Below the pieces are notes generated by a model. That model did no database searches. It was given only the letters and a program-made list of their open reading frames with translations, and was not told the origin of the DNA. This document shows positions 5,933-40,838 of a DNA stretch of 64,000 nucleotides, piece by piece (the stretch's first letter is position 1; each line of letters begins with the position of its first letter). The stretch lies in contig CAYONC010000006.1 in the NCBI GenBank assembly GCA_964405265.1, positions 38,174 to 102,173 of the forward strand, given 5' to 3'. This DNA is from an uncultured Butyrivibrio sp. Lineage in GTDB: Bacteria; Bacillota; Clostridia; Lachnospirales; Lachnospiraceae. The position numbers were made by a program, and so were the translations under genes.

Positions 5933-5933
5933 A

Positions 5934-18471: not shown

Positions 18472-19747
18472 AATCTGCCTCCTGTAATTTTTTCCTGACT
18501 ATGGATGCATTTTCAGCATCAAATTCTTCTTCGTTATAATATTTTGAAATATCGGTTTCCTGCAGCACGGCAAATTCTTCTTTATCAATGTTCTTTGAAA
18601 TGTCAGCTGCCGCCCTTCCTGCAAATACAAGGCTTTCAAGCAGTGAATTACTTGCCAGCCGGTTCTTTCCGTGAACACCGTTGCATGCTGTTTCTCCCAC
18701 GGCATACAGGTTCTTCATTGAAGTAAGGCTGTTGTGATCAACCCGTATTCCTCCCATAAAATAATGCTGTGCCGGAACAACGGGTATTCTCTGTGCGGTT
18801 ACATCATAACCATTCTCCCTTAAATGTGCCTCTATATTTGGAAAATGAGATTTAATTTCATCAACCGGTATTGTATGTAAGTCCTCCCATACATAATCCG
18901 TACCGTCTTTTTTCATCTGTTTATATATTTCTTTTGTAAGCAGATCCCTCGGAAGAAGCTCATCCACAAATCTCTCTCCTGAAGCATTATAGAGTCTGGC
19001 ACCTTCTCCGCGTACGGATTCAGAAATCAGGAATCTCCTGTCCTCCGGTTTATCACTGTAAAAAGTAGTCGGATGTATCTGCACATATGTAATGTCTTTC
19101 AGCTTTATCCCGTGTCTCACCGCTATTGCTATTCCATCACCTGTAAGATGTCTGAAATTTGTTGAATGCCTGTATAATCCGCCTACGCCGCCCGTGGCAA
19201 GCACAACCTTTTTAGTGCTTACGGTTTCAACCCTTCCGTCACTGCATCTTATGATGCAGCCCGTGCACACGTTGTCTTTTTCAATTATGTCCAGTATTTT
19301 TGTATATTCAAGAATGGTTACGTTAGGCTTTTTCATAACCTCACGGATAAGCGTTTCCGTAATTTCCTTTCCGGTCTCATCCTTATGAAATACGATTCTT
19401 TCTTCCGAATGTGCTCCTTCTTTCGTAAATGCAAGACTGCCGTCTTCATTTTTCTTAAAATCCGCACCGTATTCCATCAGCTCTTCCACAAGTGCTTTTG
19501 ACGCACGAATCATTATTTCAACTGATTTTCTGTCATTTTCATAATGACCTGCCCTTATGGTATCCTCAAAATAGCTGTCATAATCAGATTCATCCTTCAG
19601 CATACACATTCCTCCCTGTGCAAGAAAGGAATCACTGCTTTTTATATCTGATTTGGTTATAATTGTAATATTAACACTATCAGGAAGATGTAATGCACAA
19701 TACAGTCCTGAACATCCGGTTCCCGCTATAAGTACGTCTGTTTTCAT
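18461..19747 (-). CDS. nadB: L-aspartate oxidase
   Basis: IAGTGCSG FAD motif, SFLAQGG, EGAHS, QIHPT, SESVRGEG, HYFMGG, HGKNRLASNSL; ATG 19747 with SD. Confidence 0.95.
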   Translation of the reverse strand: MKTDVLIAGTGCSGLYCALHLPDSVNITIITKSDIKSSDSFLAQGGMCMLKDESDYDSYFEDTIRAGHYENDRKSVEIMIRASKALVEELMEYGADFKKNEDGSLAFTKEGAHSEERIVFHKDETGKEITETLIREVMKKPNVTILEYTKILDIIEKDNVCTGCIIRCSDGRVETVSTKKVVLATGGVGGLYRHSTNFRHLTGDGIAIAVRHGIKLKDITYVQIHPTTFYSDKPEDRRFLISESVRGEGARLYNASGERFVDELLPRDLLTKEIYKQMKKDGTDYVWEDLHTIPVDEIKSHFPNIEAHLRENGYDVTAQRIPVVPAQHYFMGGIRVDHNSLTSMKNLYAVGETACNGVHGKNRLASNSLLESLVFAGRAAADISKNIDKEEFAVLQETDISKYYNEEEFDAENASIVRKKLQEADYDR

Positions 19748-19761
19748 ATCCGGTCCTTCCA

Positions 19762-20664
19762 TCATGCAAGCTCAAGCATTCTTTCCAACGGTTTTACTGC
19801 TTTATTTATGATATCTTCAGTCAGAATAACTTCATTGATTTCGTTCTCAAGTACATCATATATCTTTTCAAGTGTTATTTTCTGCATATCACCGCATTTC
19901 TGTTCTCTGATTAAGGTATACAGCTTTTTACCCTCTGCCTGTTTTTTTATCTCTGCAAATACACCGTCAACGGTTCCTATAATAAATTCGTCCGCATCGG
20001 TATTTTTTACGTAATTTATTATTCCCGAGGTACTCCCGGTATAATCCGCATATTTCAGGACATCTGCAAGACACTCCGGATGTGCTGCAAATTTTGCATC
20101 CGGATGTGCTTTTCTGGCTTCAATTACATCATGCTCACTTATAATTGTATGCCTCGGACAGTGCCCGGAGTTAAGAATGATATTTTTTTCGGGAACATTT
20201 TTCTTAACAAAGCTTCCGAGATTGGAATCGGGAATAAAAAATACATTCTTATTGGAAAGCTTCTTAACTATGCTTACGGCATTTGCGGATGTAACACATA
20301 CGTCCGAAGCAGCCTTCAGTTCTGCTGTCGAATTTATGTAGCACACTACCGCAAGGTCTTCATATTTTTCCCGCATGATTTTAATTTCCTCAACAGATGC
20401 CATATGTGCCATTGGACAGTCTGCCGTAACGTCCGGAAGAAAAACCCTTTTCTCCGGATTCAGCATTTTGGCACTTTCTCCCATAAATCCGACTCCGGCA
20501 AATATTATTCTGTCTTCCGTAACCTTATTCGCAATTACACTCAGGTAATATGAATCTCCTACGTAATCCGCAATATTCTGTATTTCTTCATCCACATAGT
20601 AATGTGCCAGAATTACGGCATTTTTTTCTTTTTTCAATCTCAATATATCTTCCGTTAATGACAT
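19762..20664 (-). CDS. nadA: Quinolinate synthase
   Basis: ILAHYY, DYVGDS, FMGESAK, CPMA, CYINS, HPEC, CGDM; ATG 20664 after AAGGAG. Confidence 0.96.
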   Translation of the reverse strand: MSLTEDILRLKKEKNAVILAHYYVDEEIQNIADYVGDSYYLSVIANKVTEDRIIFAGVGFMGESAKMLNPEKRVFLPDVTADCPMAHMASVEEIKIMREKYEDLAVVCYINSTAELKAASDVCVTSANAVSIVKKLSNKNVFFIPDSNLGSFVKKNVPEKNIILNSGHCPRHTIISEHDVIEARKAHPDAKFAAHPECLADVLKYADYTGSTSGIINYVKNTDADEFIIGTVDGVFAEIKKQAEGKKLYTLIREQKCGDMQKITLEKIYDVLENEINEVILTEDIINKAVKPLERMLELA

Positions 20665-20669
20665 AATGG

Positions 20670-21374
20670 TCAGTCTCCTTTTGTTCTCACATGAATCAGT
20701 TCTCTTATTACTTCTCCCGCTGCCATCATTCCGGCACATGACGGTACAAATGCAGTACTTCCCGGTATTCTCCCTATCCTGTCATTTCTGCAGGGTTCTT
20801 CTGTTGAATACACAACCTTGAGACGTTCTATGCCTCTTTTTCTTAATTCCCTGCGCATTACCCTTGCAAGCGGACACACCGACGTATTGTATATGTCTGT
20901 TACATGCAGTTTAGACGGCTGCAGCTTATTGCCTGTTCCCATGCAGCTTATTACTGGTATTCCTTTTTGTGTGCATTTTACTATTATATCCAGTTTTGCC
21001 GTTACCGTGTCTATTGCGTCCACTACATAGTCACAGCCGTCAAAATCAAAGTTTTCCGATACCTCTGGCAGATAAAAGCAGTTTATTACCTCAACACGTG
21101 CTTCCGGATTAATGTCAAGAATCCTTTCTTTCATTACTTCTGTCTTCATTCTTCCGACCGTTGAGCCGGCAGCAATTATCTGTCTGTTAATATTGCTTAC
21201 GGATACCCTGTCATTATCAACAAGAATAAATTTTCCTATCCCGCTCCTGGCAAGTCCTTCCGCGACATATCCTCCTACGCCTCCGATACCGAAAATCATG
21301 ACTCTTGCATCTGAAAGTATCTTCATGGAGTCTGTGCCTACAAGCATTTCCATTCTGTCAAACCGTTTTTCCAT
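20670..21374 (-). CDS. tcdA: tRNA threonylcarbamoyladenosine dehydratase (ThiF family)
   Basis: FGIGGVGG, VDNDRV.VSNINRQ, DAID, CMGTGNK, CPLARVMR, PGSTAFVP. Confidence 0.9.
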   Translation of the reverse strand: MEKRFDRMEMLVGTDSMKILSDARVMIFGIGGVGGYVAEGLARSGIGKFILVDNDRVSVSNINRQIIAAGSTVGRMKTEVMKERILDINPEARVEVINCFYLPEVSENFDFDGCDYVVDAIDTVTAKLDIIVKCTQKGIPVISCMGTGNKLQPSKLHVTDIYNTSVCPLARVMRRELRKRGIERLKVVYSTEEPCRNDRIGRIPGSTAFVPSCAGMMAAGEVIRELIHVRTKGD

Positions 21375-22950: not shown

Positions 22951-23711
22951 ATCGGACTGCAGATCATTACCATATTATTCGTCCTTACCAGCCGGCATAC
23001 AACGCCGCTTGTGCTGTTGAGTGCCTCAACACTCATACCGTTCCCGACATAAATTGCAACATGATCAATGTTCATGAACCTTCCGTTCTGAGAAGAGCTG
23101 TAAAAAATCAAATCTCCCGGCTTCATGTTATCATATGAACGTGCTTTTCCTGCCTCATAAAGCAGCTGAGCCTCTGCGGCTGCCGTATTTATGCCGTTGC
23201 GGCTGATATTTATTCCTGCATTAAGACATGAATAATACGCAAGTGAGCTGCAGTCATAATATGAGCCGGAATCTCTTTTTTCCTGCGAATAAGGATATCC
23301 GACCTTTGAAAGCGCATAGGTGCATATAAGTTTTCTCTCCGTTTCTTCCATATCCTGTATTGCACCGGTTTCAGCCGGAGCTTCCGTCAGGGCTTCAATC
23401 GGGGCTTCTGTCGGGGCTTCTGTCGGGGCTTCTGTCGGGGCTTCAATCGGGGCTTCCGTCGGGGCTTCTGTCGGGGCTTCCGTCGGGGCTTCCGTCGGGA
23501 CTTCCGTCGGGGCTTCAATCGGGGCTTCAATCGGGGCTTCTGTCGGGGCTTCAATCGGGGCTTCCGTCGAAGCCTCCGTTACAGACTCTGCCTGTAACGG
23601 CTTCATAAGCTCCGTACCTGCGTTCCTGTCATGTAAATAATTAATACAATGCAATGTAAAAACCGATAATGCAGCCACAATATTCACGATGGTTCTTGTA
23701 TATTTTCTCAT
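22947..23711 (-). CDS. NlpC/P60 (C40) peptidase with PTEA repeat stalk
   Basis: Signal/anchor; GYPYSQ, YDCSSL (Cys), PGDLIFY, DHVAIYVG (His). Confidence 0.9.
   Translation of the reverse strand: MRKYTRTIVNIVAALSVFTLHCINYLHDRNAGTELMKPLQAESVTEASTEAPIEAPTEAPIEAPIEAPTEVPTEAPTEAPTEAPTEAPIEAPTEAPTEAPTEAPIEALTEAPAETGAIQDMEETERKLICTYALSKVGYPYSQEKRDSGSYYDCSSLAYYSCLNAGINISRNGINTAAAEAQLLYEAGKARSYDNMKPGDLIFYSSSQNGRFMNIDHVAIYVGNGMSVEALNSTSGVVCRLVRTNNMVMICSPI
23378..23580. repeat. In-frame 12-bp tandem repeat, about 16-17 copies (PTEA/PIEA)
   Basis: tcggggcttc(tg/cg/aa) repeated head to tail. Confidence 0.95.
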
Positions 23712-24460
23712 ACTTCCGGCTGTTTTCCTTTTTTCTCCGGTATATACGGGAAGGTCGGCATAAGCTCAAGTTTAAACCTGTTCATTCTGTTCATCCTGTC
23801 TATTTTTTCCTTTACTTCGTCATCATCACATACTCCGGTTCTGATATATCTGTCAAGCACATCATAGGTAAAGCCGATTTTTTCCTCATCCGATTTACCG
23901 CTTAACCCGTCACTCGGTGTCTTATATATGAGATTATGCGGAAGTCCGAGTGCCTCACCAATCTGCCTTGCTTCTGTCACCGTAATATTGGCAAGCGGCG
24001 AAAAATCACCTGCACTGTCCCCATACCGTGTTGAATATCCTATCCAGTCTTCTGAAAGATTACAGGTATTCGCCACCCTTCCGTTATTGCTCTGACTTAC
24101 TGCATACAGGACTGACATTCTTATTCTTGGCGGAAGGTTTATGCGCGTCTGTTCTGAAATTTCTATTCCTGCACAATTCATTTCACTGATAACCCCTTCA
24201 ACGGATGACTTTATATTAATTACATAATGTCTGATTTCAAGATGATTCACTAATTGCAGGGCATCATCAATGTCCGCCTGTTCTCCGTCCGGCATAAGCA
24301 CTCCTATTACCCTGTCCCTGCCCAGTGCTTCCGTACACAGTGCAGCAACAATGGACGAATCCTTACCTCCTGATATGCCTATTACGGCATTGCATCCCTT
24401 TCCGTTTTTCTCAAACCATTCCCTTATCCACCCGATTATTCTGTCTTTTAAACTTTCCAT
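23708..24460 (-). CDS. nadE: NH3-dependent NAD+ synthetase (single domain, no glutaminase domain)
   Basis: IGISGGKDSS, NLPPRIRM, TCNLSE..IGYSTRYGD, KTPSDGL, DEEKIG; about 250 aa. Confidence 0.93.
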   Translation of the reverse strand: MESLKDRIIGWIREWFEKNGKGCNAVIGISGGKDSSIVAALCTEALGRDRVIGVLMPDGEQADIDDALQLVNHLEIRHYVINIKSSVEGVISEMNCAGIEISEQTRINLPPRIRMSVLYAVSQSNNGRVANTCNLSEDWIGYSTRYGDSAGDFSPLANITVTEARQIGEALGLPHNLIYKTPSDGLSGKSDEEKIGFTYDVLDRYIRTGVCDDDEVKEKIDRMNRMNRFKLELMPTFPYIPEKKGKQPEV

Positions 24461-24480
24461 TTTCAAAGCCTCCGCATATG

Positions 24481-25776
24481 TCAGTTATATGTTATGTCAT
24501 ATGATATACTGCCGTTTCCGTATTTGCATGAATAACTCACGCCCTTTCCGGCTATGAAGGTATCAACCTTTTCCATTATGGCATCAACACTTACCGAATC
24601 ATTATTCAGCAAAAATATGTATCTGCCTGAATCAGTCATTAATGCTATGGCAGAATCTGCTTCCGTTTCCGAATTTATCGTGAATATTCCGCTGTATCCC
24701 ATTATGGTATACGGATATTCATTATATTCTGACGAGGTTCCGTATTGCGACGGTGTATTGCCTGCATATTTATCTGCCGTGTGTGTCATGGATATTTTGT
24801 CATATGTACACAGAAAATATGTATATGATATATTGGAACCGTCCTTATAATCGCTTGTTCCTTTTATCATCGGATCATCCCATGTAACATCCATAAAATA
24901 CCATTCACCGTTAATCATTACGCCGTTCCATGCATGAGGCTCACCTGCATCTCCTGATACAAGTGAACATGGTATGTCCAGTTCATTCATAAATACATAA
25001 AATGCAACCGAATAGCCCTGACACACGGCAATTCTGTTATTAAGTATATTATACAGATGGTTCCGTGCATCACTTCTGGAATAATATGACGTGTCATATT
25101 TTGTATTAACGACAAGGTAATCATGAACCGCCTTAATTTTCTCAAGATCCGACATGTCGGTATATATTATTCCGCTTATTATGTTGCGGACTCTTACAAT
25201 ATCATCCGTGGTTATATTACTGTAACTGCTTATTTCAGGATATGTGGTTATTTCACCTGAAACAATGAGCGGTATGTGTGCTGACGGTGCTGAGGTCACA
25301 GGCTCCGTTGGTGCTGCCGTCTCTGATTCTGCCGGCGACGATGTTGCAGGTTCCGCGGGCTTAACAGCCGGTGATGATGTTGCAGGTTCCGCAGGCTTAA
25401 CAGCTGGCGACGATGTTGCAGGCTCCACAGGCTTAACCGTTGAAGGCTCAGTCGGTTTAACTGATGGTACACGTGTTGCAGGTTCCGTAACTGTCTCTTC
25501 TGGTCTTACTGTCTGTGTCTCCTCCGGAAATCCGGTTTCATTTTCCGTTGGTATCTCCGTTCCGTTCTCTCCGGCTGTATCGTTATTTTCAGAAAATGAT
25601 GAGGTATTCTCCGTTTCTCTGTCAGACTCCGCAATATTATCATGTTCATCACTTACCGAAGTAACCCTGTCATTAATATTTACGCTGTCCGGACGTTTCT
25701 TCGTGCATCCTGCCGTCAATACCGTTAAAATTATAACCGCCATTAACAGCATGTTTTTTCTAAACATTTTTTTCAT
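24481..25776 (-). CDS. Lipoprotein with transglutaminase-like (Cys-His-Asp) domain and Pro/Thr linker
   Basis: Lipobox LTAGC; AVHDYL, VCQGYS, HAWN, MDVTWDD. Confidence 0.85.
   Translation of the reverse strand: MKKMFRKNMLLMAVIILTVLTAGCTKKRPDSVNINDRVTSVSDEHDNIAESDRETENTSSFSENNDTAGENGTEIPTENETGFPEETQTVRPEETVTEPATRVPSVKPTEPSTVKPVEPATSSPAVKPAEPATSSPAVKPAEPATSSPAESETAAPTEPVTSAPSAHIPLIVSGEITTYPEISSYSNITTDDIVRVRNIISGIIYTDMSDLEKIKAVHDYLVVNTKYDTSYYSRSDARNHLYNILNNRIAVCQGYSVAFYVFMNELDIPCSLVSGDAGEPHAWNGVMINGEWYFMDVTWDDPMIKGTSDYKDGSNISYTYFLCTYDKISMTHTADKYAGNTPSQYGTSSEYNEYPYTIMGYSGIFTINSETEADSAIALMTDSGRYIFLLNNDSVSVDAIMEKVDTFIAGKGVSYSCKYGNGSISYDITYN
25331..25461. repeat. In-frame 36-bp repeat, about 3-3.5 copies (SSPAVKPAEPAT)
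   Basis: gatgttgcagg(t/c)tcc...ggcttaac repeated. Confidence 0.8.
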
Positions 25777-25837
25777 ATGAATCGCACTCCTCAGACTTTA
25801 ATTAACATGATTATACCATATAACATTCTTCTGTAAA

Positions 25838-25885: not shown

Positions 25886-27310
25886 TTATAAGCTGTTAAG
25901 CCTGTTTTCCAGTGTTTCTTTTAAAACAGCCGGATCAACAATTCCCTTGAGTTCCTTCATACACGCACCGAAAATTGACTGGAATGCTTTAACCTTTCCG
26001 TTTTTGTAATCAGTTACCGCCTGTACGTTGGCTTTAATCACTTCGTCAATTACCGTTTCCATCCTTGAAGAATCCACTTTTTTATCAAATCCGTTTTCTT
26101 TACAATATTCAACAGGATTCACATCTTCTTCAAAGACTGCAGCGAGAACCTTTTTACCTGAAATTCTGTTAATCGTTCCTGATTCAACCATTTTTATGAT
26201 TGATATCATTTTTTCAGAAGAAATATCAAGCATATCTATTGTTTTACCTTCTTTTCTCAGAAGACCCACACATTCCGTAAGTATCCAGCCGGATGCTTCC
26301 TTTGCCGTACAGCCTGCTGCAGTCACCTCGTCAAACAGTTCCGCTATATTCTTGTTGCCGATTATCATACTGATTTCTTTATCGGAAAGTCCTGCTTCCT
26401 GATATTCCACTGTTTTATCATCAATTTCTACCGGTCTGTTGCGCTTAATCTGCTCAATCCATTCATCATCAATAACTATCGGCATAAGGTTAGGATCCGG
26501 AAAATATCTGTAATCAGCTTCCGTTTCCTTGTTACGCATTGCAAATGTCTTTCCGCTTGCAACATCAAACCTTCTCGTCTCCTGTACAAGTTCTTCCGTT
26601 TCATACTCTATTGCATCTATATGCCTCTGTGCTTCATAATTGATTGCTTTCTCAATCGCCTCAAAAGAACTCATGTTCTTTATTTCTGAACGTACACCAA
26701 GCTCTTCACTTCCTTCAGGGCGTACGGAAATGTTGACATCGCATCTCATTGCGCCCTCTTCACACTCTGAGATACCTCCGAATCTCATCATTGACTTGAG
26801 CTTTGTAAGGTATGAAATAACCTCTTCCGCACTTCTGAAATCAGGCTGGGTCACAATTTCAATGAGAGGAACACTGGTACGGTTAAAATCCACATATGAA
26901 AAGCTTCCGCTGTGAACAAGCTTTCCTGCATCCTCTTCCATGTGAATCTGTTTAATTCTTATTTCACGTACGCCTGCGGACGATTTTACCTTCACAAGAC
27001 CGTTTCTGCATATAGGATGATTAAGCTGCGTTATCTGATATGCACAAGGCAGATCCGGATAATAGTAATTCTTCTTGTCAAAGGTTGTATACCTGCTGAT
27101 TTCGCAGTTAAGCATAAGTCCTGCCGCAACCGCAAGCTCCACTACATGCTTATTCATTACGGGAAGCATTCCCGGCATACCGGAACACGCCGGACATACA
27201 CAGTCATTCGGCTCTTTGGCTGATGAATGTCCTCCGCAGGAGCAGAAAATTTTTGATTCCGTATTTAATTCAACATGGGTTTCAAGACCTATTACAAGTT
27301 CGTACTTCAT
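25886..27310 (-). CDS. gatB: Asp/Glu-tRNA amidotransferase subunit B
   Basis: IGLETHVEL, FCSC/CPAC, KNYYYPDLP, HMEEDAGK, DFNR..VPLIEIV, RCDVN, YRYFPDP. Confidence 0.96.
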   Translation of the reverse strand: MKYELVIGLETHVELNTESKIFCSCGGHSSAKEPNDCVCPACSGMPGMLPVMNKHVVELAVAAGLMLNCEISRYTTFDKKNYYYPDLPCAYQITQLNHPICRNGLVKVKSSAGVREIRIKQIHMEEDAGKLVHSGSFSYVDFNRTSVPLIEIVTQPDFRSAEEVISYLTKLKSMMRFGGISECEEGAMRCDVNISVRPEGSEELGVRSEIKNMSSFEAIEKAINYEAQRHIDAIEYETEELVQETRRFDVASGKTFAMRNKETEADYRYFPDPNLMPIVIDDEWIEQIKRNRPVEIDDKTVEYQEAGLSDKEISMIIGNKNIAELFDEVTAAGCTAKEASGWILTECVGLLRKEGKTIDMLDISSEKMISIIKMVESGTINRISGKKVLAAVFEEDVNPVEYCKENGFDKKVDSSRMETVIDEVIKANVQAVTDYKNGKVKAFQSIFGACMKELKGIVDPAVLKETLENRLNSL

Positions 27311-28501
27311 CTATTTTCCCTCCTTTTCAACAGCACCTGCAATGCTGAGCAGTGTATTTTCATTAAATGCCTTTCCCATAAGCTGCACACCGGATGTTAC
27401 AAGCGAAGGAATACCCGTAAGATTTGCTGCCGAAGTAAAAATACTTTCCGCATATACCTTCTCAAAAGCTCCGGAAATATCATAGCTTTCATATTTTAAG
27501 GTGCTGCACGCCGGTATCAGCACCGCATCATATTTTTCAAAAATATCCTTAAGCCTGTCACTTATTACACGCCTGATTCTCAATGACTTGTCATAGCAGT
27601 CAGCGTAACGCTGCTTTGAAAGCACGTCAGAGCCATACAGAATAACAGCCTTGGTAAGGAAGTTAAAACCTTCCGTCCTTGAATTAACATACAGCTCATC
27701 AATATTTCTGTATTTTTCCGCACGATATCCGAATTTAACACCGTCATATCGTGACACATTGTTGCAGGTCTCTGCCGACATCAGAATCTGCCATGCAACG
27801 TTTGCCGTTCTGAATATGTCCGCAGATATTTCTTCCGTTATTATTCCGTTTTCTTCGGACTTCCGTACAAAGCTTTTAATTTTTTCCCTTACGATGTTAT
27901 CCGCCATATCGGCAAGTTCACTGATAACGGCGATTTTTTTGCCCTTAACCTCTTCACCGGCAGAGTATGAATATTTTTCTTCTTTAAGGCTTGTTCCGTC
28001 CTTATCGTCATGTCCTGCAATAATACCCATTATCTCTGCAGTCTTTCGTGCATCGGACGCATATACGCCAACCTGTTCTCCTGATGCCGCCGTGGAAATT
28101 ATTCCGTATCTTGAAACGGTTCCATAGGTGGGTTTTAAAAAGTCAACTCCCGAAACTGCTGCCGCTCTCCTCGGTGCACCATTTACGTCAACCCCGAGTG
28201 CCGCCTCTGCGCCGCCGTCGGCAACAAGCTGTGCCGCCGCACCTTTAATTTCTCCCTCAGCCCTGTTAAAATGTGAAAACTCTCCCATTAAATCAAGCCC
28301 GAATTCTCCGGTATGTGTTTTGCCCGAAACGGAATATCCCGCATTTTCGAGACGTACCACTGCTTCCGCACTGAATAACGGCTTAAATCCCGTTAATATT
28401 TTTGAACCGTATGACGCCATACAGTCCCTGACAAGTATACTGTCATCAACCGCAATATTGCCGTTTTTATTTATTGAAGCATAATAATAATTCATTGACA
28501 A
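27311..28501 (-). CDS. gatA: GatA homologue, N-terminally short, catalytic triad absent
   Basis: LKPTYGTVSRYG, NVSRYDGVKFGYR, SRTEGF, ANLTGIP conserved; IAVDD replaces IxxKD and GVDVNGAPR replaces GSDTGGSIR; stop abuts gatB ATG. Confidence 0.88.
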   Translation of the reverse strand: MSMNYYYASINKNGNIAVDDSILVRDCMASYGSKILTGFKPLFSAEAVVRLENAGYSVSGKTHTGEFGLDLMGEFSHFNRAEGEIKGAAAQLVADGGAEAALGVDVNGAPRRAAAVSGVDFLKPTYGTVSRYGIISTAASGEQVGVYASDARKTAEIMGIIAGHDDKDGTSLKEEKYSYSAGEEVKGKKIAVISELADMADNIVREKIKSFVRKSEENGIITEEISADIFRTANVAWQILMSAETCNNVSRYDGVKFGYRAEKYRNIDELYVNSRTEGFNFLTKAVILYGSDVLSKQRYADCYDKSLRIRRVISDRLKDIFEKYDAVLIPACSTLKYESYDISGAFEKVYAESIFTSAANLTGIPSLVTSGVQLMGKAFNENTLLSIAGAVEKEGK

Positions 28502-28509
28502 TGTCCTCC

Positions 28510-30591
28510 TTATTTAACAAGTCTTGGTACCTGCCAGCTGTTTTCGTTGTGTGCAGGTGCTCCTTCAAGAAGTTCATCCCTGGTAAAAGGCTGAACCCTT
28601 ACATCTTCACGAAGAACATTATTCATCGGTGAAACATAAATCATTTCTTCGACGTTTTCCGTATCCGTCGTCTTCAGTATTTCTTCCTGTTCCTTCATCA
28701 TGCTGAAAATATCTTTTACCCTGTTTTCTTCTTCTTCGGTAAGTGCCAGCTGGTTAAGCTGCTGAGCATTTGAAAATGTTGAACGCTTTCCCTGTGCTCC
28801 CCTGTATGATGTCTGAGGTCCCATGCCTGCCCTTCTCTCAAGTGCATTTCCGTTTCCCAGAAGGTGAACATCCTCCAACTGTTCATTGGTTACTTCACCC
28901 GGTGCCCCGAGCAGCAGGTCCTGTGCGTTTCCGTTTAACGGGAATGCTATGACGTCAAGAATCTTTTCCTCATCAGTAAGAAGCATAACCATTCTGTCAA
29001 CGCCCGGTGCCATACCTGCATGAGGCGGTGCGCCATACTGGAAAGCTGTATAAAGCGCATTGAACCTTTTCTTAAGTTCCTCCTCGGAATATCCTGCAAT
29101 TTCAAATGCTTTCTTCATAATGTCAATGTCATGGTTTCGTACCGCACCTGATGCAAGCTCTATTCCGTTGCACACAAGGTCATACTGATATGCAAGTACA
29201 TCCTCAGGATTTTTTGTAAGCAGTGCTTCCATGCCTCCCTGCGGCATTGAAAACGGATTATGCGTAAAAATGGTTGCTCCTGTTTCCTCATCTTCTTCGT
29301 ACATAGGGAAGTCAACAACAAAACAGAATTCAAATGAATCATCCTTAATAAGGTCAAGATTTTCCTTCCTTGCAAGCCATGTTCTTATAAGACCGGCTTT
29401 CTTTTCCGTATCATTTTTCTTCTCATCACAAATGAAAAAGAGTGTCTCATTCTCTTTAATTCCCGTTATTTCAGTAATTTCCGATTTCTGTGCATCACTG
29501 AGGAATTTTGCGATTGGTCCTGCAAAATTTCCGTCCTTCAGTGTAATATATCCGAGTCCTCCGAGTGCAACCTCATCTGACATTGCATACTTTAAGGAAT
29601 CCTCAAAAAATTTCTTGGATTTATTCCTGCAGTCGGCAACAATTCCCCTTACCGGTTTGCCCTTAAATGCCGGGAATGACACTCCTGAGAAGAAATCCGT
29701 CAGATCACGGATTATAAGAGGATTTCTTAAATCCGGCTTATCAGAACCGTATGTCATCATTGCATCCGCATAGGTAATTCTTCTGAAAGGCTTAGGACTT
29801 ACCTTTTTATCGGAAAATTTCACGAATGTATCATATATGACATCTTCACATACCTCAAGAACCTCTTCCTGCGTGGCAAATGCCATTTCAAAATCAAGCT
29901 GGTAAAATTCTCCCGGTGACCTGTCTGCTCTCGCATCCTCATCACGGAAACACGGTGCTATCTGGAAGTATCTGTCAAATCCTGATACCATAAGAAGCTG
30001 TTTAAACTGCTGTGGTGCCTGAGGCAGTGCATAGAATTTTCCGGGATGCTTACGGCTCGGTACAAGAAAATCCCTCGCTCCTTCCGGTGATGATGCCGTA
30101 AGTATCGGTGTCTGCATTTCCAAAAAATCCTTTTCTTCCATTTTATGTCTGAGGAATCGGATTATCTGCGAACGCTTTACGAGATTGTCATGATTTTTCG
30201 GATTACGGAGGTCAAGATAACGGTATTTTAATCTCAGCTCATCCTTAATCTGTCTTGAGCCTGCCACGTCAAACGGTGTCATGTTTTTTGCTTTTCCGAG
30301 TACGGTAAGCTCACTTACCACGAGCTCCACGTAACCTGTATCTATTTTATTATTGACCGTTTCAGGGTCTCTCTTTTCCACTGTTCCCTTTACTGAAATT
30401 ACCGTTTCACGGTTAACATCCTTCAGTAAGTCTTCATTGTGAATTACCGTCTGTGTAATTCCCGTATAATCTCTGATATCCACGAATATGACTCCGCCAT
30501 GGTCACGGATTACGTCAACCCAGCCTGCCAGCTCAACTGTCTGACCGACATGTTCTTCACGGATGTCATTGCAGTGATGTGTTCTGTACAT
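28510..30591 (-). CDS. aspS: Bacterial-type aspartyl-tRNA synthetase (non-discriminating signature) fused to a C-terminal GatC domain
   Basis: MYRTHHC, RDHGG, EGARDFLVPSR, LPQAPQQFKQLLM, CFRDED, GAPPHAG; after a roughly 30-aa Gly-rich linker comes LALTEEE...DTENVE...NVLRED...LLEGAP...WQVPRLV (GatC; about 28510-28767). Confidence 0.93.
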   Translation of the reverse strand: MYRTHHCNDIREEHVGQTVELAGWVDVIRDHGGVIFVDIRDYTGITQTVIHNEDLLKDVNRETVISVKGTVEKRDPETVNNKIDTGYVELVVSELTVLGKAKNMTPFDVAGSRQIKDELRLKYRYLDLRNPKNHDNLVKRSQIIRFLRHKMEEKDFLEMQTPILTASSPEGARDFLVPSRKHPGKFYALPQAPQQFKQLLMVSGFDRYFQIAPCFRDEDARADRSPGEFYQLDFEMAFATQEEVLEVCEDVIYDTFVKFSDKKVSPKPFRRITYADAMMTYGSDKPDLRNPLIIRDLTDFFSGVSFPAFKGKPVRGIVADCRNKSKKFFEDSLKYAMSDEVALGGLGYITLKDGNFAGPIAKFLSDAQKSEITEITGIKENETLFFICDEKKNDTEKKAGLIRTWLARKENLDLIKDDSFEFCFVVDFPMYEEDEETGATIFTHNPFSMPQGGMEALLTKNPEDVLAYQYDLVCNGIELASGAVRNHDIDIMKKAFEIAGYSEEELKKRFNALYTAFQYGAPPHAGMAPGVDRMVMLLTDEEKILDVIAFPLNGNAQDLLLGAPGEVTNEQLEDVHLLGNGNALERRAGMGPQTSYRGAQGKRSTFSNAQQLNQLALTEEEENRVKDIFSMMKEQEEILKTTDTENVEEMIYVSPMNNVLREDVRVQPFTRDELLEGAPAHNENSWQVPRLVK

Positions 30592-30685
30592 CTTCTTCTA
30601 CCTCCTGAATAAAAAATGTATAAAGTACGGCTCTTACCGGATGGTGGTAAATCTTATGTCCGGCAAAATATACATCCGTCAGACA

Positions 30686-30895
30686 AAAAAACGGGAATAC
30701 ATAAAATTATGTATTCCCGGGACGAGCAAACAATGTTAACCCGCGGTGCCACCCGCATTGAAGCCTATGCTTCCACTTTAACTTAAATTGTAAATTATAC
30801 AACAGAGTGTTCCCACGCTTACTACTCTTCTCAAACATGCTTCCAGCCGATGACATGTTCTCTCTGTCAGAATTTCCACAAAAGCGGAGTCTCCA
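30686..30895 (-). ncRNA. T-box riboswitch leader of aspS-gatC/gatA/gatB
   Basis: AGAGAG bulge and GGCTGGAAG loop motifs, T-box GGGTGGCACCGCGG (30741-30754), 3' CTCGTCCC antiterminator strand, terminator gggaatacat-loop-atgtattccc-T7; candidate specifier AAC at 30809-30811. Confidence 0.9.
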
Positions 30896-30901
30896 CTGGA
30901 A

Positions 30902-30930
30902 ATAGTATCAGATTATTTTTCTAAAATCAA
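30902..30930 (-). promoter_or_regulatory. Promoter for the T-box leader
   Basis: TTGATT-17 bp-TACTAT with extended TG on the minus strand. Confidence 0.6.
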
Positions 30931-30984: not shown

Positions 30985-31004
30985 TATGACTAAATGAATA
31001 TAAC

Positions 31005-31118
31005 CGCAGTCCGGTATGCATACGTATGCATGAGAGGGAAGTTCGGTGTAAATCCGTCGCAACCATCATTACCGTAATTGAAGATTTTCTTCATAAGTCG
31101 GGCTACTCTCCGGACAAC
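31005..31118 (+). ncRNA. Cobalamin riboswitch (compact, class-II-like)
   Basis: P1 gtccgg/ccggac; core AGGGAAGTTCGGTGTAAATCCG, ACCGTAA, AAGTCGG; precedes B12-type ECF genes. Confidence 0.85.
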
Positions 31119-31215
31119 GGCGGAGGTTTTGTGCCACAGGCACTAACGCTTTTGGATATGAAAGGCGGAACCGTTAAAAGGGGATATCATACCCTTTTTG
31201 CTTAACGGGATTTTT

Positions 31216-31505: not shown

Positions 31506-32318
31506 ATGAAAAAATTATTAACAGCGCTTTTAACTCTTGCACTCACCGCGTACACCGTCATAATTCCGGTATCTGCTGCCGATACGGATGCAGACGGTAC
31601 CATCGTGTATGTAACGATTACCGATTCTGATGGAAAAACGGTTCTTGCCAATGAAGCCGTTACGGTTAATGACTGCGATAATGATGGAACCCTTACGATT
31701 AACGACGCCCTTTATTCGGCGCATGAAGCAAACTACGAAGGCGGTGCGGCTGCAGGCTATGCATCCGCAGACAGTGAGTGGGGATTATCCCTCACAAAAT
31801 TATGGGGCTGCGAAAACGGAGGTTCATACGGCTATTATGTTAATAATGCATCAGCCATGAGCCTGTCCGATGAAGTTAAAAATAACGATCACGTCAATGC
31901 TTTTGTATATACTGACCTTGTATCATACAGTGATACATATACTTTTTTCAGTGCAGATACGTCTGATGTTGATGCAGGAAGTGAATTTACCCTTACACTT
32001 ACGGCTTACGGATGGGACGGAAATTCTCCTGTGGAAAATGCCATAATTCTTGTCAACGGTCAAAAAACGGATTATCACACCGGTGCTGACGGTACCGTTG
32101 CAATGAAGCTTAACGGGGCAGGACGATATATAATCAGTGCCGAATGTGACGAAATCAACATTGTGGCTCCGGTATTTACGATAAATGTATCAGGAAGTAC
32201 ACAGTCGGAACCTGCTGCCGGTGATAACGGCATGGTTTATGTATGGATGGTGCTTCTTATCATATGTACATGCACTGCATATATTACAGTGAAACATACA
32301 AAATGCCATGAATCATAA
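31506..32318 (+). CDS. Surface protein with DUF4430-like domain, Ig-like domain and C-terminal anchor
   Basis: Signal peptide; TINDAL...LTKLWG..GGSYGYYVNN; C-terminal PAAGD + TM + basic tail. Confidence 0.65.
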   Translation: MKKLLTALLTLALTAYTVIIPVSAADTDADGTIVYVTITDSDGKTVLANEAVTVNDCDNDGTLTINDALYSAHEANYEGGAAAGYASADSEWGLSLTKLWGCENGGSYGYYVNNASAMSLSDEVKNNDHVNAFVYTDLVSYSDTYTFFSADTSDVDAGSEFTLTLTAYGWDGNSPVENAIILVNGQKTDYHTGADGTVAMKLNGAGRYIISAECDEINIVAPVFTINVSGSTQSEPAAGDNGMVYVWMVLLIICTCTAYITVKHTKCHES

Positions 32319-33834
32319 GCATATCTTCAGAACATTTTCATTTTTATTAATCTTTCTGTCTGTCTTCTTCTTTTCCCGTCCGGTTTATGCGGGATTACCG
32401 GAAGACAGTATGGAAATTTACGAAAACATTCTGAAATACAAGGGTGCCGGTTCGGAGGATGAAATTCAGCAGCTGATTGACAGCGGAAGCCTCTCCGAAT
32501 GGTACATCCTTGCACTTGCCGGCTGTGGCTCATACAGCATGGATTCTTATGCAGCAGGACTGCTGTCATATCTTGACGATAACGGCATAAATTCCGCATC
32601 ATCAGCTCTTAAATATGGTCTGTGCCTTATCGCATCAGGATACGGTAACGAAGAATATCTGACCGGCATTCTTGAAAATAATGCCGGAAAACAGGGAATA
32701 ATGAGTCTTGTATTCGGACTTCATCTTGTAAATAACGGAGTAAAGGGAAAAAGCATAGACCGTGACGGACTTATAAATGAAATACTCATGCTTCAGTGTC
32801 AAGACGGCGGCTTTTCCATAATGTCAGACAAGGGAGATGCGGATGTTACCGCAATGGTTCTTCAGGCACTTGCACCAAACCGGTATGCATATCCGGATGT
32901 CAGCACCGCAATTGAGAATGCATTATGCTTTTTGTCGGAATCACAGCTTGAAGACGGCGGCTTTTCGAGCTACGGAACTCCGAATGCGGAAAGTACGGCA
33001 CAGGTCATAATTGCACTGACCTCCCTTGGGATTGATTTATCATCATCCCATGATTTCATAAAGAACGGCAATACACTATTGGACGGTATAAGCAGATATA
33101 TTCTCCCTGACGGAAGCATATGCCATACGGCAGACGGAGTTTCATCTGAAAGTGCCACATCACAGACTTTCTGTGCCATGGCTGCCATAAGACGCATGAA
33201 TGATGACGGAAGTCCCCTGTACATATATGAAAAGGGCGAATACACGTTTACTCCAGAAAAAACACTGAATTACAGGTATATTGCCATTCCCGTAATTGCA
33301 GCTGTCGGGATAATGATATGCATTGTACTCTTCGTAATTAAAAAAAGGCATCCTTTTAATTTTCTGGCAGTCATAATGCTCAGTGCAGCCGGTATACTGT
33401 TTGTTGCATTGACGGATTTTAAATCACCTGATGATTATTATGACGGAAGCAGGATTACAGTTGATAATCCGACCGGTTCTGTCAGTATGTCCATATTATG
33501 CCATACCGTGCAGGGTAAGGCAGAACACATTCCCGAGAACGGTGTAATTCTCGAAAAATCAGTTTTTGACATAGAAGAAGGCGACACCGTATATACGGTT
33601 CTTAAAAGAGCAGCCGTACAATACGGAATACGGATAGACAATACCGGAAACAGCAGTTATGTATATATATCCGGTATAAATTACCTGTATGAATTTGACT
33701 ACGGAGACCTGTCAGGATGGATTTATACGGTCAACGGCATACAGCCCTCAAAGGGTGCCGGTGAATACACACTGAATGACGGTGACGAAATAGAATGGCA
33801 TTACACCCTGAATTTAGGAAAAGACATTGAATGA
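32308..33834 (+). CDS. Prenyltransferase/squalene-oxidase-repeat barrel plus C-terminal DUF4430 (transcobalamin-like)
   Basis: LQCQDGGF, DADVTAMVLQAL, SQLEDGGFSSYG, NAESTAQVIIAL; two TMs; TVYTVL..., YISGINYLYEFDYGDLSGWIYTVNG. Confidence 0.82.
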   Translation: MNHKHIFRTFSFLLIFLSVFFFSRPVYAGLPEDSMEIYENILKYKGAGSEDEIQQLIDSGSLSEWYILALAGCGSYSMDSYAAGLLSYLDDNGINSASSALKYGLCLIASGYGNEEYLTGILENNAGKQGIMSLVFGLHLVNNGVKGKSIDRDGLINEILMLQCQDGGFSIMSDKGDADVTAMVLQALAPNRYAYPDVSTAIENALCFLSESQLEDGGFSSYGTPNAESTAQVIIALTSLGIDLSSSHDFIKNGNTLLDGISRYILPDGSICHTADGVSSESATSQTFCAMAAIRRMNDDGSPLYIYEKGEYTFTPEKTLNYRYIAIPVIAAVGIMICIVLFVIKKRHPFNFLAVIMLSAAGILFVALTDFKSPDDYYDGSRITVDNPTGSVSMSILCHTVQGKAEHIPENGVILEKSVFDIEEGDTVYTVLKRAAVQYGIRIDNTGNSSYVYISGINYLYEFDYGDLSGWIYTVNGIQPSKGAGEYTLNDGDEIEWHYTLNLGKDIE

Positions 33835-33851
33835 ACCCGCAGGAGAAGCAT

Positions 33852-34730
33852 ATGAGAAACTTTGATGATTTCAATCCGGTAAGCATAACCATATATTTCA
33901 TTTCAATAACGGCTGTTATAATGTTTTCAAAGAATCCTCTGCTTCTTCTTACGGCTTTTCTGGGAATTACCGCATATTCCGCGGTCTCCCGGAAAAAAGC
34001 CATGCTTCATGCCTTCAGACTGTGTATTCCGATGTACCTTATTCTGACGCTCATCAATCCTTTCCTGTATCATAACGGAAAAACCGTTTTATTTGTATTT
34101 AATGATATGCCTTTTACATTAGAGGCGCTCATCTGCGGAGCCGTAAGTTCCGGAATAATTGTTACCGTAATTCTATGGTTCAGACTTTTTTCATTAATAA
34201 TGTCCGCCGACAGGCTTATGTATGTTACCGGTATACTGTCGCCGGGATTATCCCTGGTGATTTCCATGTCCGTACGGTATGTTTCACTTTTTAAAATCCG
34301 TTTAGGATATATCAGGGACACGCAGAAAGCCCTCGGCCTCTACAAAAAAGATAATATTTTCAATAAGATTAAAAGTGACCTGCGAATCTTTTCCATACTT
34401 ATCACATGGTCTCTCGAAAATGGAATAATCACTGCACGCAGCATGAATGCAAGAGGCTACGGAAAAAATAAACGTACCTCTTACCGCAGATTCAGATTTA
34501 CAAAAGCGGATTCTCTGATGACCGCTGCTGCCGTTTTATGCAGCACGGTAACCTTCACATCACTTATATGCGGAAGCCTTAATTATGAATTTTACCCTTC
34601 TCTCTCAGGCTTTAATGCATCACCGTCCGCATACGCCGGCTGCACGGCATACGCTATTCTTTCACTGCTGCCGTTATTTATTGAACTGGAGGAAAAAATA
34701 AGATGGAAATACTTACGGTCAAAAATATGA
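33852..34730 (+). CDS. ecfT: ECF transporter T component
   Basis: Multi-TM; SMSVRYV, WSLENGIITARSMNARGYG; ATG 33852 after AGGAG. Confidence 0.88.
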   Translation: MRNFDDFNPVSITIYFISITAVIMFSKNPLLLLTAFLGITAYSAVSRKKAMLHAFRLCIPMYLILTLINPFLYHNGKTVLFVFNDMPFTLEALICGAVSSGIIVTVILWFRLFSLIMSADRLMYVTGILSPGLSLVISMSVRYVSLFKIRLGYIRDTQKALGLYKKDNIFNKIKSDLRIFSILITWSLENGIITARSMNARGYGKNKRTSYRRFRFTKADSLMTAAAVLCSTVTFTSLICGSLNYEFYPSLSGFNASPSAYAGCTAYAILSLLPLFIELEEKIRWKYLRSKI

Positions 34731-36241
34731 ATTTTAAATATCCCGGATGTGAAAATAACGCCTTGACGGACGTAAGCTTCAGTATAAACGCCGGGGATTT
34801 TACGGTAATATACGGCTCGACCGGAAGCGGCAAATCAACACTTCTGAGTCTGCTTAAGGAAGAATCGGCTCCAAAAGGCGATATAAACGGCGATATATCC
34901 TGTTCCGGCAGAATCGGTTATGTATGCCAGCACCCTGAAGAACAGATTGTTACTGACAGGGTATATTCGGAGCTTGCCTTCAGTCTTGAAAATGCCGGTA
35001 TGTCACAGGCTGAAATGTCAAAAAAAATTGCTGAAACCGCTTCTTATTTCGGAATTGAGGAATGGTTTGAGCGTGAAACATCCACTCTGTCCGGCGGCGA
35101 ACAGCAGCTCCTCAATCTTGCTTCTGCCATGATAACAGAGCCGGACATTCTTATTCTTGATGAGCCTGCTTCCAGCCTTGATCCCATAGCGGCATCAGAT
35201 TTTGCCTATGCACTTCACAGACTGAGTGAAGAGCTTTCCATTACGATAATAGTGGCTGAACACAGATTTGACATGCTTCTCCCCTTTTGCAACAGACTTA
35301 TAAGACTTGAAAACGGAAAAATCATATCAGAAGACAGTCCGCAAAACATTAAACCGGATTCTCTTCTTATCCCTTCCGTTACAAAGCTTTTTTTCAGGCT
35401 TAAGGGCTCCGGAAGCTGCCCCGTCACGGTAAGGGAATGCCGCCGTTTTATCGAAAAGCTGCCTATGAAAATTGAATGCAGGCCTTTTTCAGATGAATAC
35501 ATACACAGCAATACCGGTGTTCTTGAGTTTAAAAATGTTTTTTTCAGATATGACAGAAATTCACGTGACGTATTAAACGGTCTTAATTTTACGCTGTACG
35601 AGAATGAAATTCTCTGCATTTTAGGAGGAAACGGCTCCGGCAAATCCACAGCCCTGAAATGTGCGTCCGGAATACTTAATCCCTATTGCGGTTCAATCCG
35701 CGTATACAACAAAAACATAAAAAAATACGGTCAGAATCTGTATGATGGTATCCTAAGCCTTATGCCCCAGAATATACAGACCGTTTTCCTTAAAAATACC
35801 GTACGTGAGGAATTCAGGGACGCAGGCGTGGATTTAAATAACCTGTTTTATGATTTTTCACGGCTTCTTGACAGACACCCTTATGACCTGTCCGGCGGTG
35901 AACAGCAGCTTACCGCACTTGCCAAGGTAATTGCTTCAAATCCGAAAATTCTTCTTATGGATGAACCGACTGCCGGCCTTGATGAATACAGAAAAAAAGA
36001 CCTTATCTCCATTTTTCACCGTCTGAAAAATAACGGAGTTTCAATACTCATTGTGACACATGATGTTGATTTTGCCGCCTCTGTGGCCGACAGGTGCGCC
36101 ATGTTCTTCAGAGGTGAAATAACAGCCGAGGGTACTCCGCGTGATTTTTTCTCCGGAAACTCTTTTTATACCACCTGCATATCCCGTGCTACCCGCGGAT
36201 ATGCCGACCACGCAGTTACGCTTGAGGATATAATTATATGA
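34703..36241 (+). CDS. ECF transporter tandem ATPase (fused A/A')
   Basis: Two Walker A motifs (GSTGSGKST, GGNGSGKST), two LSGGE and LDEP/MDEP. Confidence 0.93.
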   Translation: MEILTVKNMNFKYPGCENNALTDVSFSINAGDFTVIYGSTGSGKSTLLSLLKEESAPKGDINGDISCSGRIGYVCQHPEEQIVTDRVYSELAFSLENAGMSQAEMSKKIAETASYFGIEEWFERETSTLSGGEQQLLNLASAMITEPDILILDEPASSLDPIAASDFAYALHRLSEELSITIIVAEHRFDMLLPFCNRLIRLENGKIISEDSPQNIKPDSLLIPSVTKLFFRLKGSGSCPVTVRECRRFIEKLPMKIECRPFSDEYIHSNTGVLEFKNVFFRYDRNSRDVLNGLNFTLYENEILCILGGNGSGKSTALKCASGILNPYCGSIRVYNKNIKKYGQNLYDGILSLMPQNIQTVFLKNTVREEFRDAGVDLNNLFYDFSRLLDRHPYDLSGGEQQLTALAKVIASNPKILLMDEPTAGLDEYRKKDLISIFHRLKNNGVSILIVTHDVDFAASVADRCAMFFRGEITAEGTPRDFFSGNSFYTTCISRATRGYADHAVTLEDIII

Positions 36242-40645: not shown

Positions 40646-40713
40646 ATCAGTGTCCTCCGGAATTTTCAACTGCTACGGGGACACATATACAAATGTTCCG
40701 CTGATTCCATGTC

Positions 40714-40759: not shown

Positions 40760-40838
40760 GAATTGCAACTGGCTGCCATTTTAAAGGCCCTATAGCTTTG
40801 CGTCACAGATTTTCATCTGCTTTGCCAAATATTTAACT
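40760..40838 (-). ncRNA. c-di-GMP-I (GEMM) riboswitch
   Basis: GGCAAA-gcagat-GAAA-atctgt-GACGCAAAGCTATAGGG...ATGGCAGCCAGTTGC matches the GEMM consensus. Confidence 0.93.

Follow-up and report, generated by a model that had tools for sequence, protein, structure and literature searches.

tRNA-dependent amidotransferases are textbook glutamine amidotransferases, and their glutaminase subunit, together with a 30-Å ammonia tunnel, is seen as the core of the mechanism. Here we describe a bacterial operon in which that subunit appears to have been kept without its glutaminase chemistry. The operon lies in a 64-kb window (the whole stretch of DNA that was analyzed) of contig CAYONC010000006.1 from an uncultured Butyrivibrio sp. 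and consists of three tightly packed open reading frames (ORFs) on the minus strand: aspS::gatC, whose product is aspartyl-tRNA synthetase (AspRS) bearing GatC at its C terminus; gatA', which encodes a glutaminase-dead, truncated homologue of GatA (GatA'); and gatB, which encodes the kinase/transamidase subunit. These are the same three modules, with a bacterial-type AspRS, as in the bacterial GatCAB and asparagine transamidosome structures from Pseudomonas aeruginosa (4WJ3), Thermus thermophilus (3KFU), and Staphylococcus aureus (2DF4). As in bacterial GatCAB, the predicted GatA fold is retained, an intact GatB is encoded along with GatC, and the genes follow the order gatC-gatA-gatB. Unlike in bacterial GatCAB, GatA' lacks the catalytic triad, the glutamine-binding residues, about 55 to 60 N-terminal residues, and a 9-amino-acid active-site loop, and the fusion of GatC to the AspRS C terminus means that synthetase and amidotransferase are covalently linked here.

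Regulation by an Asn T-box has been reported for the aspS-gatCAB operon of Clostridium acetobutylicum (Saad et al. 2012, as summarized in PMC4206432). As far as that summary describes it, the C. acetobutylicum operon resembles the present locus in its Asn T-box, in its combination of AspRS with a complete amidotransferase set, and in its occurrence in Clostridia, and it differs in having an unfused GatC; C. acetobutylicum also has a second gatCAB. The architecture of our fusion, AspRS with a C-terminal GatC, is that of the NCBIfam bifunctional AspRS/GatC equivalog PRK12820, but the window protein scores far below its cutoff (458 bits against 1379) and is not a member; judged by sequence, the fusion in this operon is probably independent of PRK12820. 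To our knowledge, loss of the GatA triad has not been reported for the C. acetobutylicum operon.

Three other described systems share part of what we observed. Tse8, a type VI secretion system effector of P. aeruginosa, is likewise an amidase-signature protein without glutaminase activity, diverges at the residues that correspond to Y309, R358, and D425, and binds GatB and GatC in GatA's place (10.1101/733030). Unlike GatA', however, Tse8 keeps the triad and is a toxin that is delivered into rivals and poisons the complex, whereas GatA' belongs to the operon itself as its resident subunit, and purifying selection acts on it and its partners. A synthetase half that uses free ammonia once its glutaminase half is missing or bypassed is also seen in single-domain NadE as opposed to glutamine-dependent NadE, in AsnA as opposed to AsnB, and in yeast GatFAB supplied with NH4Cl (PMC4027206); in the NadE and AsnA cases the glutaminase module is missing, whereas here it is kept as a dead, conserved subunit. 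AtzE/AtzG of s-triazine catabolism (PDB 6C62) is, like the present pair, a GatA/GatC pair that has departed from its original catalytic role, but AtzE keeps an active triad and left the tRNA pathway, whereas GatA' lost the triad and stayed in it. No NCBIfam model captures GatA' proteins, and in the literature that we searched, with key GatCAB papers beyond reach, we found no description of a triad-less GatA.

Active site and fold of GatA'

Residue equivalences were taken from HMMER alignments to solved GatA chains and from a 135-sequence alignment in S. aureus numbering, and the codons were checked in the DNA. The best PDB sequence matches of GatA' were all GatA (Aquifex aeolicus 3h0l_A, E = 5e-57; S. 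aureus 2df4_A, E = 1e-50), and the protein matched the Pfam Amidase family (PF01425) with an E value of 1e-49. Among NCBIfam models, the GatA equivalog TIGR00132 was its best family, yet the score of 243 bits fell well short of the cutoff of 481.

The original prediction for this locus, made by eye from the sequence, held that all three catalytic residues of GatA had been lost while the reading frame and interface motifs were kept. Alignment to the solved chains bears this out. The catalytic Lys is replaced by Asp and the nucleophilic Ser by Ala at the codons that had been named (Table 1), and the loop described as shortened and devoid of Ser corresponds to a 9-residue gap at the canonical NPW...PGG loop, just upstream of I83, with cis-S154 and S155 replaced by I83 and K84. 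At the N terminus, where about 60 residues had been reckoned missing, the alignments begin at query residue 14 to 15 against canonical residue 69 to 77, which puts the loss at about 55 to 62 residues. The motifs KPTYGTVSRYG and NNVSRYDGVKFGYR are retained as claimed, and the gatA' stop codon, TAG (27311-27313), directly adjoins the gatB ATG at 27310. Only the 5' end of the ORF had to be corrected. An earlier span ran to a TTG at 28501, but translation almost certainly begins at the ATG at 28495, because GGAGGA lies 8 nucleotides (nt) upstream of it and because the resulting 394 amino acids agree with the 392 to 395 of the homologues.

Beyond what had been predicted, the alignments show that the substrate site is gone as well. 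Y309, R358, and D425 are named as glutamine-binding residues of S. aureus GatA (10.1101/733030), PMC4027206 names the residues of the yeast protein that correspond to R358 and D425, and all three positions are replaced in GatA' (Table 1). Because the triad and these three residues have all been replaced, GatA' should be unable to give ammonia from glutamine; judged by its aligned residues, it cannot be a Ser-cisSer-Lys glutaminase, as neither its catalytic machinery nor its substrate site remains. A relocated triad was sought across the GatA' family and rejected, since no conserved Ser or Lys takes over.

An AlphaFold2 model of GatA' built from 48 family members reached a pLDDT of 81.5 and a pTM of 0.86. 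Its best Foldseek matches were the GatA chains of GatCAB (2df4_A, 3h0l_A, and 4wj3_A; TMq of 0.84 to 0.85), and the model thus indicates that the GatA fold is retained. Residues 245 to 286 (nt ∼27638-27763) have a pLDDT of <50 exactly over the most conserved stretch of the protein, NNVSRYDGVKFGYR...EGFNFLTKAV, as would be expected if this stretch were ordered only against GatB and GatC.

The AspRS part of the fusion is of the bacterial type, with an OB fold, a class II core, and a GAD insertion (NCBIfam AspRS, 741 bits), and Pfam matches comprise tRNA-synt_2 (5e-111), the OB anticodon domain, GAD, and GatC (PF02686, 1.3e-9, residues 617 to 687); the C-terminal 106 amino acids match S. aureus GatC (2df4_C) with an E value of 4e-4. 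GatB is a member of the NCBIfam GatB equivalog (NF004012/TIGR00133; 566 bits, cutoff of 338), matches Pfam GatB_N (4e-113) and GatB_Yqey with full-length cradle and YqeY domains, aligns over its full length with 3h0l_B (E = 5e-122), and retains the motifs GLExHV, HxEEDAGK, EIVTxPD, and RCDxNIS.

Conservation and regulation of the cassette

More than 120 relatives of GatA' were among the protein-database matches listed (65 to 72% identity); nearly all have 392 to 395 amino acids and stem from Clostridia metagenome-assembled genomes (MAGs), and NCBI labels them, where they are named, "hypothetical protein." A scan of one genome per GTDB species gave at least 330 confirmed stretches encoding a GatA' relative, all in gut MAGs of ruminants and other animals. 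The best 80 of these 330 stretches came from MAGs labeled Acutalibacteraceae, Candidatus Fimenecus, Oscillospiraceae, or Clostridia bacterium, with animal gut as the source, including that of goat, sheep, yak, deer, and buffalo. When a cultured carrier was looked for by cluster look-ups and a second homologue search, MAGs alone were returned. The gene order aspS::gatC, gatA', gatB was kept in all 84 related loci that we fetched, while the flanks differed, and the aspS::gatC fusion was kept at 79 to 91% identity across related loci.

To gauge selection, we used the ratio of nonsynonymous to synonymous substitution rates (dN/dS). Against a 96%-identical relative (L088), this ratio was 0.084 for gatA', 0.033 for gatB, and 0.031 for aspS; the medians over 130 pairs (dS of ∼0.5) were 0.106, 0.052, and 0.066, respectively. 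The gatA' frame was uninterrupted in 88 of 89 related copies and interrupted in one, and mean column identity of the family was 80% (48 sequences). GatA' is under purifying selection and is not decaying. The homologue survey proposed alongside the original prediction has therefore been run, with dN/dS between 0.084 and 0.106 and the frame intact in 88 of 89 copies as its outcome; neither a relocated triad nor neutral decay, two findings that the prediction had named as telling against it, was seen in the family, and neutral decay was rejected on a dN/dS of ∼0.1 and the intact frame. Besides the one interrupted gatA' among the 89 copies, the sole broken cassette gene that we saw was the gatB of locus L044 (2743-4198), which is split into two ORFs by a frameshift or an assembly error.

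The loss extends well beyond the immediate relatives. In an exhaustive search of 1.84 billion cluster representatives, we sorted the 133 full-size clusters among the best 150 matches to GatA' and found that 61 carry the Lys-Ser-Ser triad, 66 lack K79 (dead clusters), and 6 are partial. Asp is the commonest replacement of K79 in the 66 dead clusters, with Glu frequent too. The positions and motifs that the dead clusters have lost are K79, N81, N123, D125, the NP loop, GGSSGGS, T175, G176, S178, Q181, P182, Y309, R358, and D425. Common to dead and canonical GatA are D80, S93, D174, G177, R180, KPTYGxVSRxG, S209, GxDxxDxT, E316-N320-R323-D325-G326-G330 (ExxxNxxRxDGxxxG), R347, and K356. This limitation of the loss to active-site and substrate motifs, as seen from 66 dead and 61 canonical clusters, would fit a scaffold role. 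S. aureus position 211 is Asp in approximately half of the dead clusters and Glu140 in GatA'; in Helicobacter pylori GatCAB, this Asp (D185 in H. pylori numbering) has reportedly been proposed as a proton relay of the ammonia tunnel.

A rough neighbor-joining tree places about 50 dead clusters, GatA' included, together and about 15 others singly among canonical sequences. This suggests one old dead family and repeated recent losses, with long-branch effects possible. Other arrangements of the dead set are listed in Table 1. At L089, the dead GatA has GVDDT, a deleted PGGS, and S178A, and the subunits of the two tandem sets at L089/L090 are 47% (A1 versus A2) and 63% (B1 versus B2) identical.

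Upstream of aspS::gatC, the Rfam T-box model RF00230 matched a leader with 47.9 bits (E = 1e-9) in E-value mode; at the Rfam gathering score, which is 93, a T-box is not reported in the window. The leader was kept in 67 of 68 related loci, and all 67 leaders have the UGGC bulge. In 66 leaders, AAC and a purine after it (A in 57 leaders, G in 9) stand immediately 5' of the closing strand of a helix; this helix covaries with its partner (CGAAG/CUUCG, CGGAG/CUCCG, CAGAG/CUCUG, and others), and the three bases that precede AAC are variable. The UGGC bulge presumably pairs with a G73 discriminator, which would fit tRNA-Asn and not tRNA-His. A reading of the specifier as CAC or CGC was rejected, as it would imply an implausible His/Arg switch. 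We infer that the leader is an Asn-specific T-box by which uncharged tRNA-Asn would switch the operon on. The AspRS-GatC fusion, the T-box with its apparent Asn specificity, and the large, partly recurrent family all go beyond the original prediction.

Nitrogen source and competing explanations

On balance, and with moderate confidence, we take the locus to be an Asn transamidosome operon made up of an Asn T-box, AspRS::GatC, a noncatalytic scaffold GatA', and an intact GatB. In such an operon, uncharged tRNA-Asn would pair through its GUU anticodon with the AAC specifier and through its acceptor end with the UGGC bulge, so that the terminator is bypassed and the operon transcribed. The AspRS part, as a putative nondiscriminating enzyme that aspartylates tRNA-Asn besides tRNA-Asp, would then charge tRNA-Asn with aspartate, a step suggested solely by the Asn T-box, the GatC fusion, and the operon partners. 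Homologous structures suggest that the attached GatC domain would clamp GatA' to GatB, yielding a covalently linked transamidosome in which GatB, with its catalytic motifs intact, would phosphorylate and then amidate Asp-tRNA-Asn at the expense of ATP. GatA' would stay as the structural partner of GatB and GatC, possibly as the mouth of the ammonia tunnel, and the amide nitrogen would come from another source, most likely free NH3/NH4+, which is millimolar in the animal gut where the known carriers live.

For GatA' as a pseudoenzyme, we found triad loss, dN/dS in the range given above, and a fixed cassette, in which gatA' stands between gatC and gatB in the window and in 84 of 84 loci and shares GatA-specific motifs with canonical GatA. 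The pseudoenzyme-scaffold part of the original prediction is well supported, given the lost triad and glutamine site, the modeled GatA fold, selection, and the fixed association with an intact gatB; its second part, operation of the enzyme on free ammonia, is plausible by analogy. The nitrogen used by the enzyme probably does not come from glutamine hydrolyzed by GatA, and free ammonia would most likely be its source. Animal gut habitats are ammonia rich. We also count as context for free ammonia the single-domain, ammonia-type NAD synthetase gene (nadE) two genes downstream of gatB, whose 252-amino-acid product is without a glutaminase domain. tRNA-dependent amidotransferases accept free ammonia in vitro: yeast GatFAB works with 20 mM NH4Cl, and loosening the cover of its GatA site raises the NH4Cl-dependent rate (PMC4027206). 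Organisms with an ammonia-dependent AsnA use AsnRS and so obtain Asn-tRNA without glutamine (2008 review, PMC2330236); by analogy, an ammonia-fed GatCA'B would reach glutamine-free Asn-tRNA by the tRNA-dependent route.

Several points weigh against an ammonia-fed scaffold complex. In P. aeruginosa, Tse8, which is without glutaminase activity, replaces GatA, cuts the supply of Asn-tRNA, and is toxic (10.1101/733030). In that system, a complex without glutaminase was not rescued by ambient ammonia. A canonical gatA or gatCAB, asnS, asnA, or asnB may lie elsewhere in this genome, and in the Clostridiaceae MAG of L089/L090 a dead gatCA'B and a canonical gatCAB do coexist in tandem. Finally, the pocket of GatA' is remodeled and not relaxed, a hint that besides scaffolding it may still bind a ligand or an ion.

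A bolder version of the free-ammonia proposal, which we put forward only tentatively, is that a large group of gut Clostridia lacks a canonical GatA altogether and makes Asn-tRNA-Asn in an obligately glutamine-independent way, with the acidic pocket of GatA' (Lys79 to Asp/Glu, D68, N105, and R110) feeding NH4+ through the tunnel. If so, it would be the first tRNA-dependent amidotransferase to depend on ammonia in nature, and the carriers might make all of their asparagine with it. What is observed is that a widespread lineage (at least 330 stretches and dozens of 50%-identity clusters) dropped the glutaminase chemistry and kept the subunit, and that the dead subunit is located inside an operon that would be switched on when tRNA-Asn is uncharged. 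Should the complex use free ammonia, it would provide a glutamine-independent route to Asn-tRNA-Asn, link translation directly to the availability of ammonia in gut and rumen, offer a natural system for the roles of GatA beyond ammonia (assembly, tunnel formation, and allostery), and be a clear addition to the short list of bacterial pseudoenzymes. Annotation of GatA' as "hypothetical" or "amidase" also leads to GatCAB being wrongly scored as incomplete in pathway reconstructions of abundant gut taxa.

The alternative that survives best, and to which we give a little less than even weight, is that a canonical gatCAB or an AsnRS route does the bulk of the work and that the T-box-controlled set with dead GatA' is a specialized auxiliary. 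It might be a low-cost, glutamine-independent backup during Asn starvation, or its GatB might rely on the canonical set for ammonia or for an A subunit. A tRNA-Asn-controlled operon would be an odd home for the cell's sole AspRS, and at L089/L090 a dead gatC-gatA'-gatB stands directly before a canonical gatC-gatA-gatB. C. acetobutylicum is reported, in the summary in PMC4206432, to carry gatCAB in duplicate alongside three AspRSs, and one of the sets belongs to an Asn T-box operon. However, second copies of gatA, gatB, and gatC are absent within 10 kb of the cassette in the 84 loci and throughout the 64-kb window, and the fused AspRS is conserved (79 to 91% identity; median dN/dS of 0.066) as a housekeeping enzyme would be. 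Moreover, even alongside a canonical set, GatA' would still be dead and under selection; its physiological weight would change, and its nature would not. When all ORFs of the 84 loci were searched by relaxed BLAST, a LysRS in L018 was the only hit, and a further amidase, GatB, or AspRS did not appear. A candidate genome with both the canonical GatA P0371 and the cassette was rejected, as the two came from different assemblies.

Rather doubtful, in our view, is that GatA' has a rebuilt site in which D17, D18, D68, D103, N105, R109, R110, C244, and W235 either capture NH4+ or some other small donor or else detect a metabolite and gate GatB. Across 121 family sequences, D17 (present in 120 of the 121), D68, N105, R110, and W235 are fixed, and D18, D103, G106, R109, and R110 show no variation at all. 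The positions of the former active site do not vary more than the rest of GatA', with a mean entropy of 0.59 compared to 0.77 for the whole of GatA' and 46% of positions invariant compared to 34%. In addition, most of the 66 dead clusters have an Asp or a Glu in place of Lys79, including lineages that are separate in the neighbor-joining tree, and this recurrence of an acidic replacement suggests selection for an acidic residue at that position. The exact catalytic positions (83, 84, 104, and 107) are, on the other hand, variable within the family; the cis-Ser position is Leu or Ile, and the nucleophile position is Ala in 91, Ser in 25, and Thr in 3 of the 121 sequences. No plausible conserved nucleophile was found across the dead lineages.

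Less probable still is a trans-acting amidase, in which an asparaginase/GatD-like protein would dock in place of the GatA glutaminase to form a bacterial GatCAB/GatDE hybrid. An asparaginase-family ORF of ∼350 amino acids (PF00710, 1.6e-21; NCBIfam GatD, 77 bits over the whole protein) does occur 4 to 68 nt downstream of gatB in 21 or 22 of 85 loci. Twelve of these copies lie on the same strand and would be cotranscribed under the Asn T-box, where the induction of a true Asn-degrading enzyme in Asn starvation would make little sense, and a GatD-like asparaginase gene lies 5 kb upstream of the tandem sets in L089. Yet nine copies are convergent and hence not cotranscribed, and neither the 64-kb window nor approximately 75% of the related loci has the gene. 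The protein also lacks the N-terminal domain of GatD, and in 120 homologues an invariant Gln occupies the position of the catalytic Lys of its Thr-Lys-Asp triad, which means that this protein too may be inactive. It keeps GGT and HGTDT, and it may either work with the dead GatA or be another pseudoenzyme; examples are found in L017 (12604-13663, plus strand), L057 (12609-13713, plus strand), L083 (10269-11322, minus strand), and L094 (10001-11050). A further gene, encoding an AlaX-like trans-editing homologue of ∼385 amino acids (the end of tRNA-synt_2c, tRNA_SAD, and DHHA1), was present in 16 of 85 related loci. It lies on the same strand, after gatB or the asparaginase-like gene (L001, 12663-13817; L071, 12656-13814; L081, 6040-7195 [+]), and would in those loci be part of the Asn T-box operon.

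That gatA' is a decaying pseudogene or an annotation artifact is scarcely credible: it has in its favor the loss of catalysis-related residues and an NCBIfam score that falls short of the GatA cutoff, and nothing more, against a dN/dS of ∼0.1, the intact frame, the uniform length, the high column identity, a ribosome-binding site of its own, and translational juxtaposition to gatB.

Coordinates and neighboring genes

Table 1. Positions of the cassette, its leader, the replaced GatA residues, neighboring features, and other dead sets (window coordinates unless a locus is named; aa, amino acids; residue equivalences in S. aureus numbering).
Feature	Position	Strand	Description and basis
aspS::gatC	28510..30591	-	693 aa; AspRS + GAD about residues 1-580, linker, GatC about residues 605-692 (nt 28513-28779)
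gatA'	27311..28495	-	394 aa + stop; glutaminase-dead, N-terminally truncated GatA homologue
gatB	25886..27310	-	474 aa; kinase/transamidase subunit, intact
T-box leader, Stem I to antiterminator	30715..30902	-	upstream of aspS::gatC; Rfam RF00230
Specifier AAC	30809-30811	-	followed by purine A at 30808
T-box bulge UGGC	30748-30751	-	
T-box intrinsic terminator	30684..30722	-	12-bp stem, then U-run; terminator scan and sequence
Promoter, sigma-70-like, strong	25810..25837	-	between gatB and next gene; 11/12 matches, extended -10; consensus match alone
K79 (catalytic Lys) to D17	28445-28447	-	GAT; HMMER alignment
S154 (cis-Ser) to I83	28247-28249	-	HMMER alignment
S155 to K84		-	alignment
T175 to V104		-	alignment
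G176 to N105		-	alignment
S178 (nucleophile) to A107	28175-28177	-	GCA; HMMER alignment
Y309 (Gln-binding) to W235	27791-27793	-	alignment
R358 (Gln-binding) to V284	27644-27646	-	alignment
D425 (Gln-binding) to S351	27443-27445	-	alignment
Transglutaminase-core protein	24481-25776	-	
NAD synthetase (nadE)	23708-24466	-	single-domain, ammonia-type
nadA, nadB, nadC, ThiF-family gene, CinA-domain gene	17617-20739	-	near nadE
Cobalamin riboswitch	30995-31128	+	32.3 bits
Cluster behind cobalamin riboswitch	31506-36897	+	
c-di-GMP-I riboswitch	40761-40836	-	60 bits
ORF downstream of c-di-GMP-I riboswitch	39149-40669	-	506 aa; without Pfam match
EAL-domain protein	13313-15211		
cdaA, ybbR, glmM-like genes, then glycosyltransferase genes	4580-8154	-	
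L085			dead GatA of 399 aa; T-box(Asn)-aspS-gatC-gatA'-gatB, unfused; T-box 124 bits, GAA-AAC-A
L086			dead GatA of 452 aa, N terminus kept; same arrangement as L085; AAC specifier
L091			Peptococcaceae MAG; gatC-gatA'-gatB
L089/L090	L089 9681-16247		Clostridiaceae MAG; dead gatCA'B set, then directly canonical gatCAB set

The promoter-like site between gatB and the next gene suggests that, in this genome, gatB is the last gene of the operon proper. The gene that it precedes encodes a transglutaminase-core protein with a signal/lipobox-like N terminus and a Pro/Ala/Thr/Ser-rich repeat, SSPAVKPAEPAT, present three times; this gene evolves fast (dN/dS of 0.28 against L088). Divergent from the T-box operon is a cobalamin riboswitch whose score is barely over the gathering score. 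The cluster behind it probably specifies a system for corrinoid uptake; among its products are a DUF4430/prenyltransferase-like protein, CbiQ, a double ABC ATPase, and an ECF S-component. Farther away in the window, a c-di-GMP-I riboswitch lies upstream of the 506-amino-acid ORF, an EAL-domain protein is encoded, and cdaA (DAC domain), ybbR, and a glmM-like gene form a c-di-AMP synthase operon of the usual kind, after which come genes for cell-envelope glycosyltransferases.

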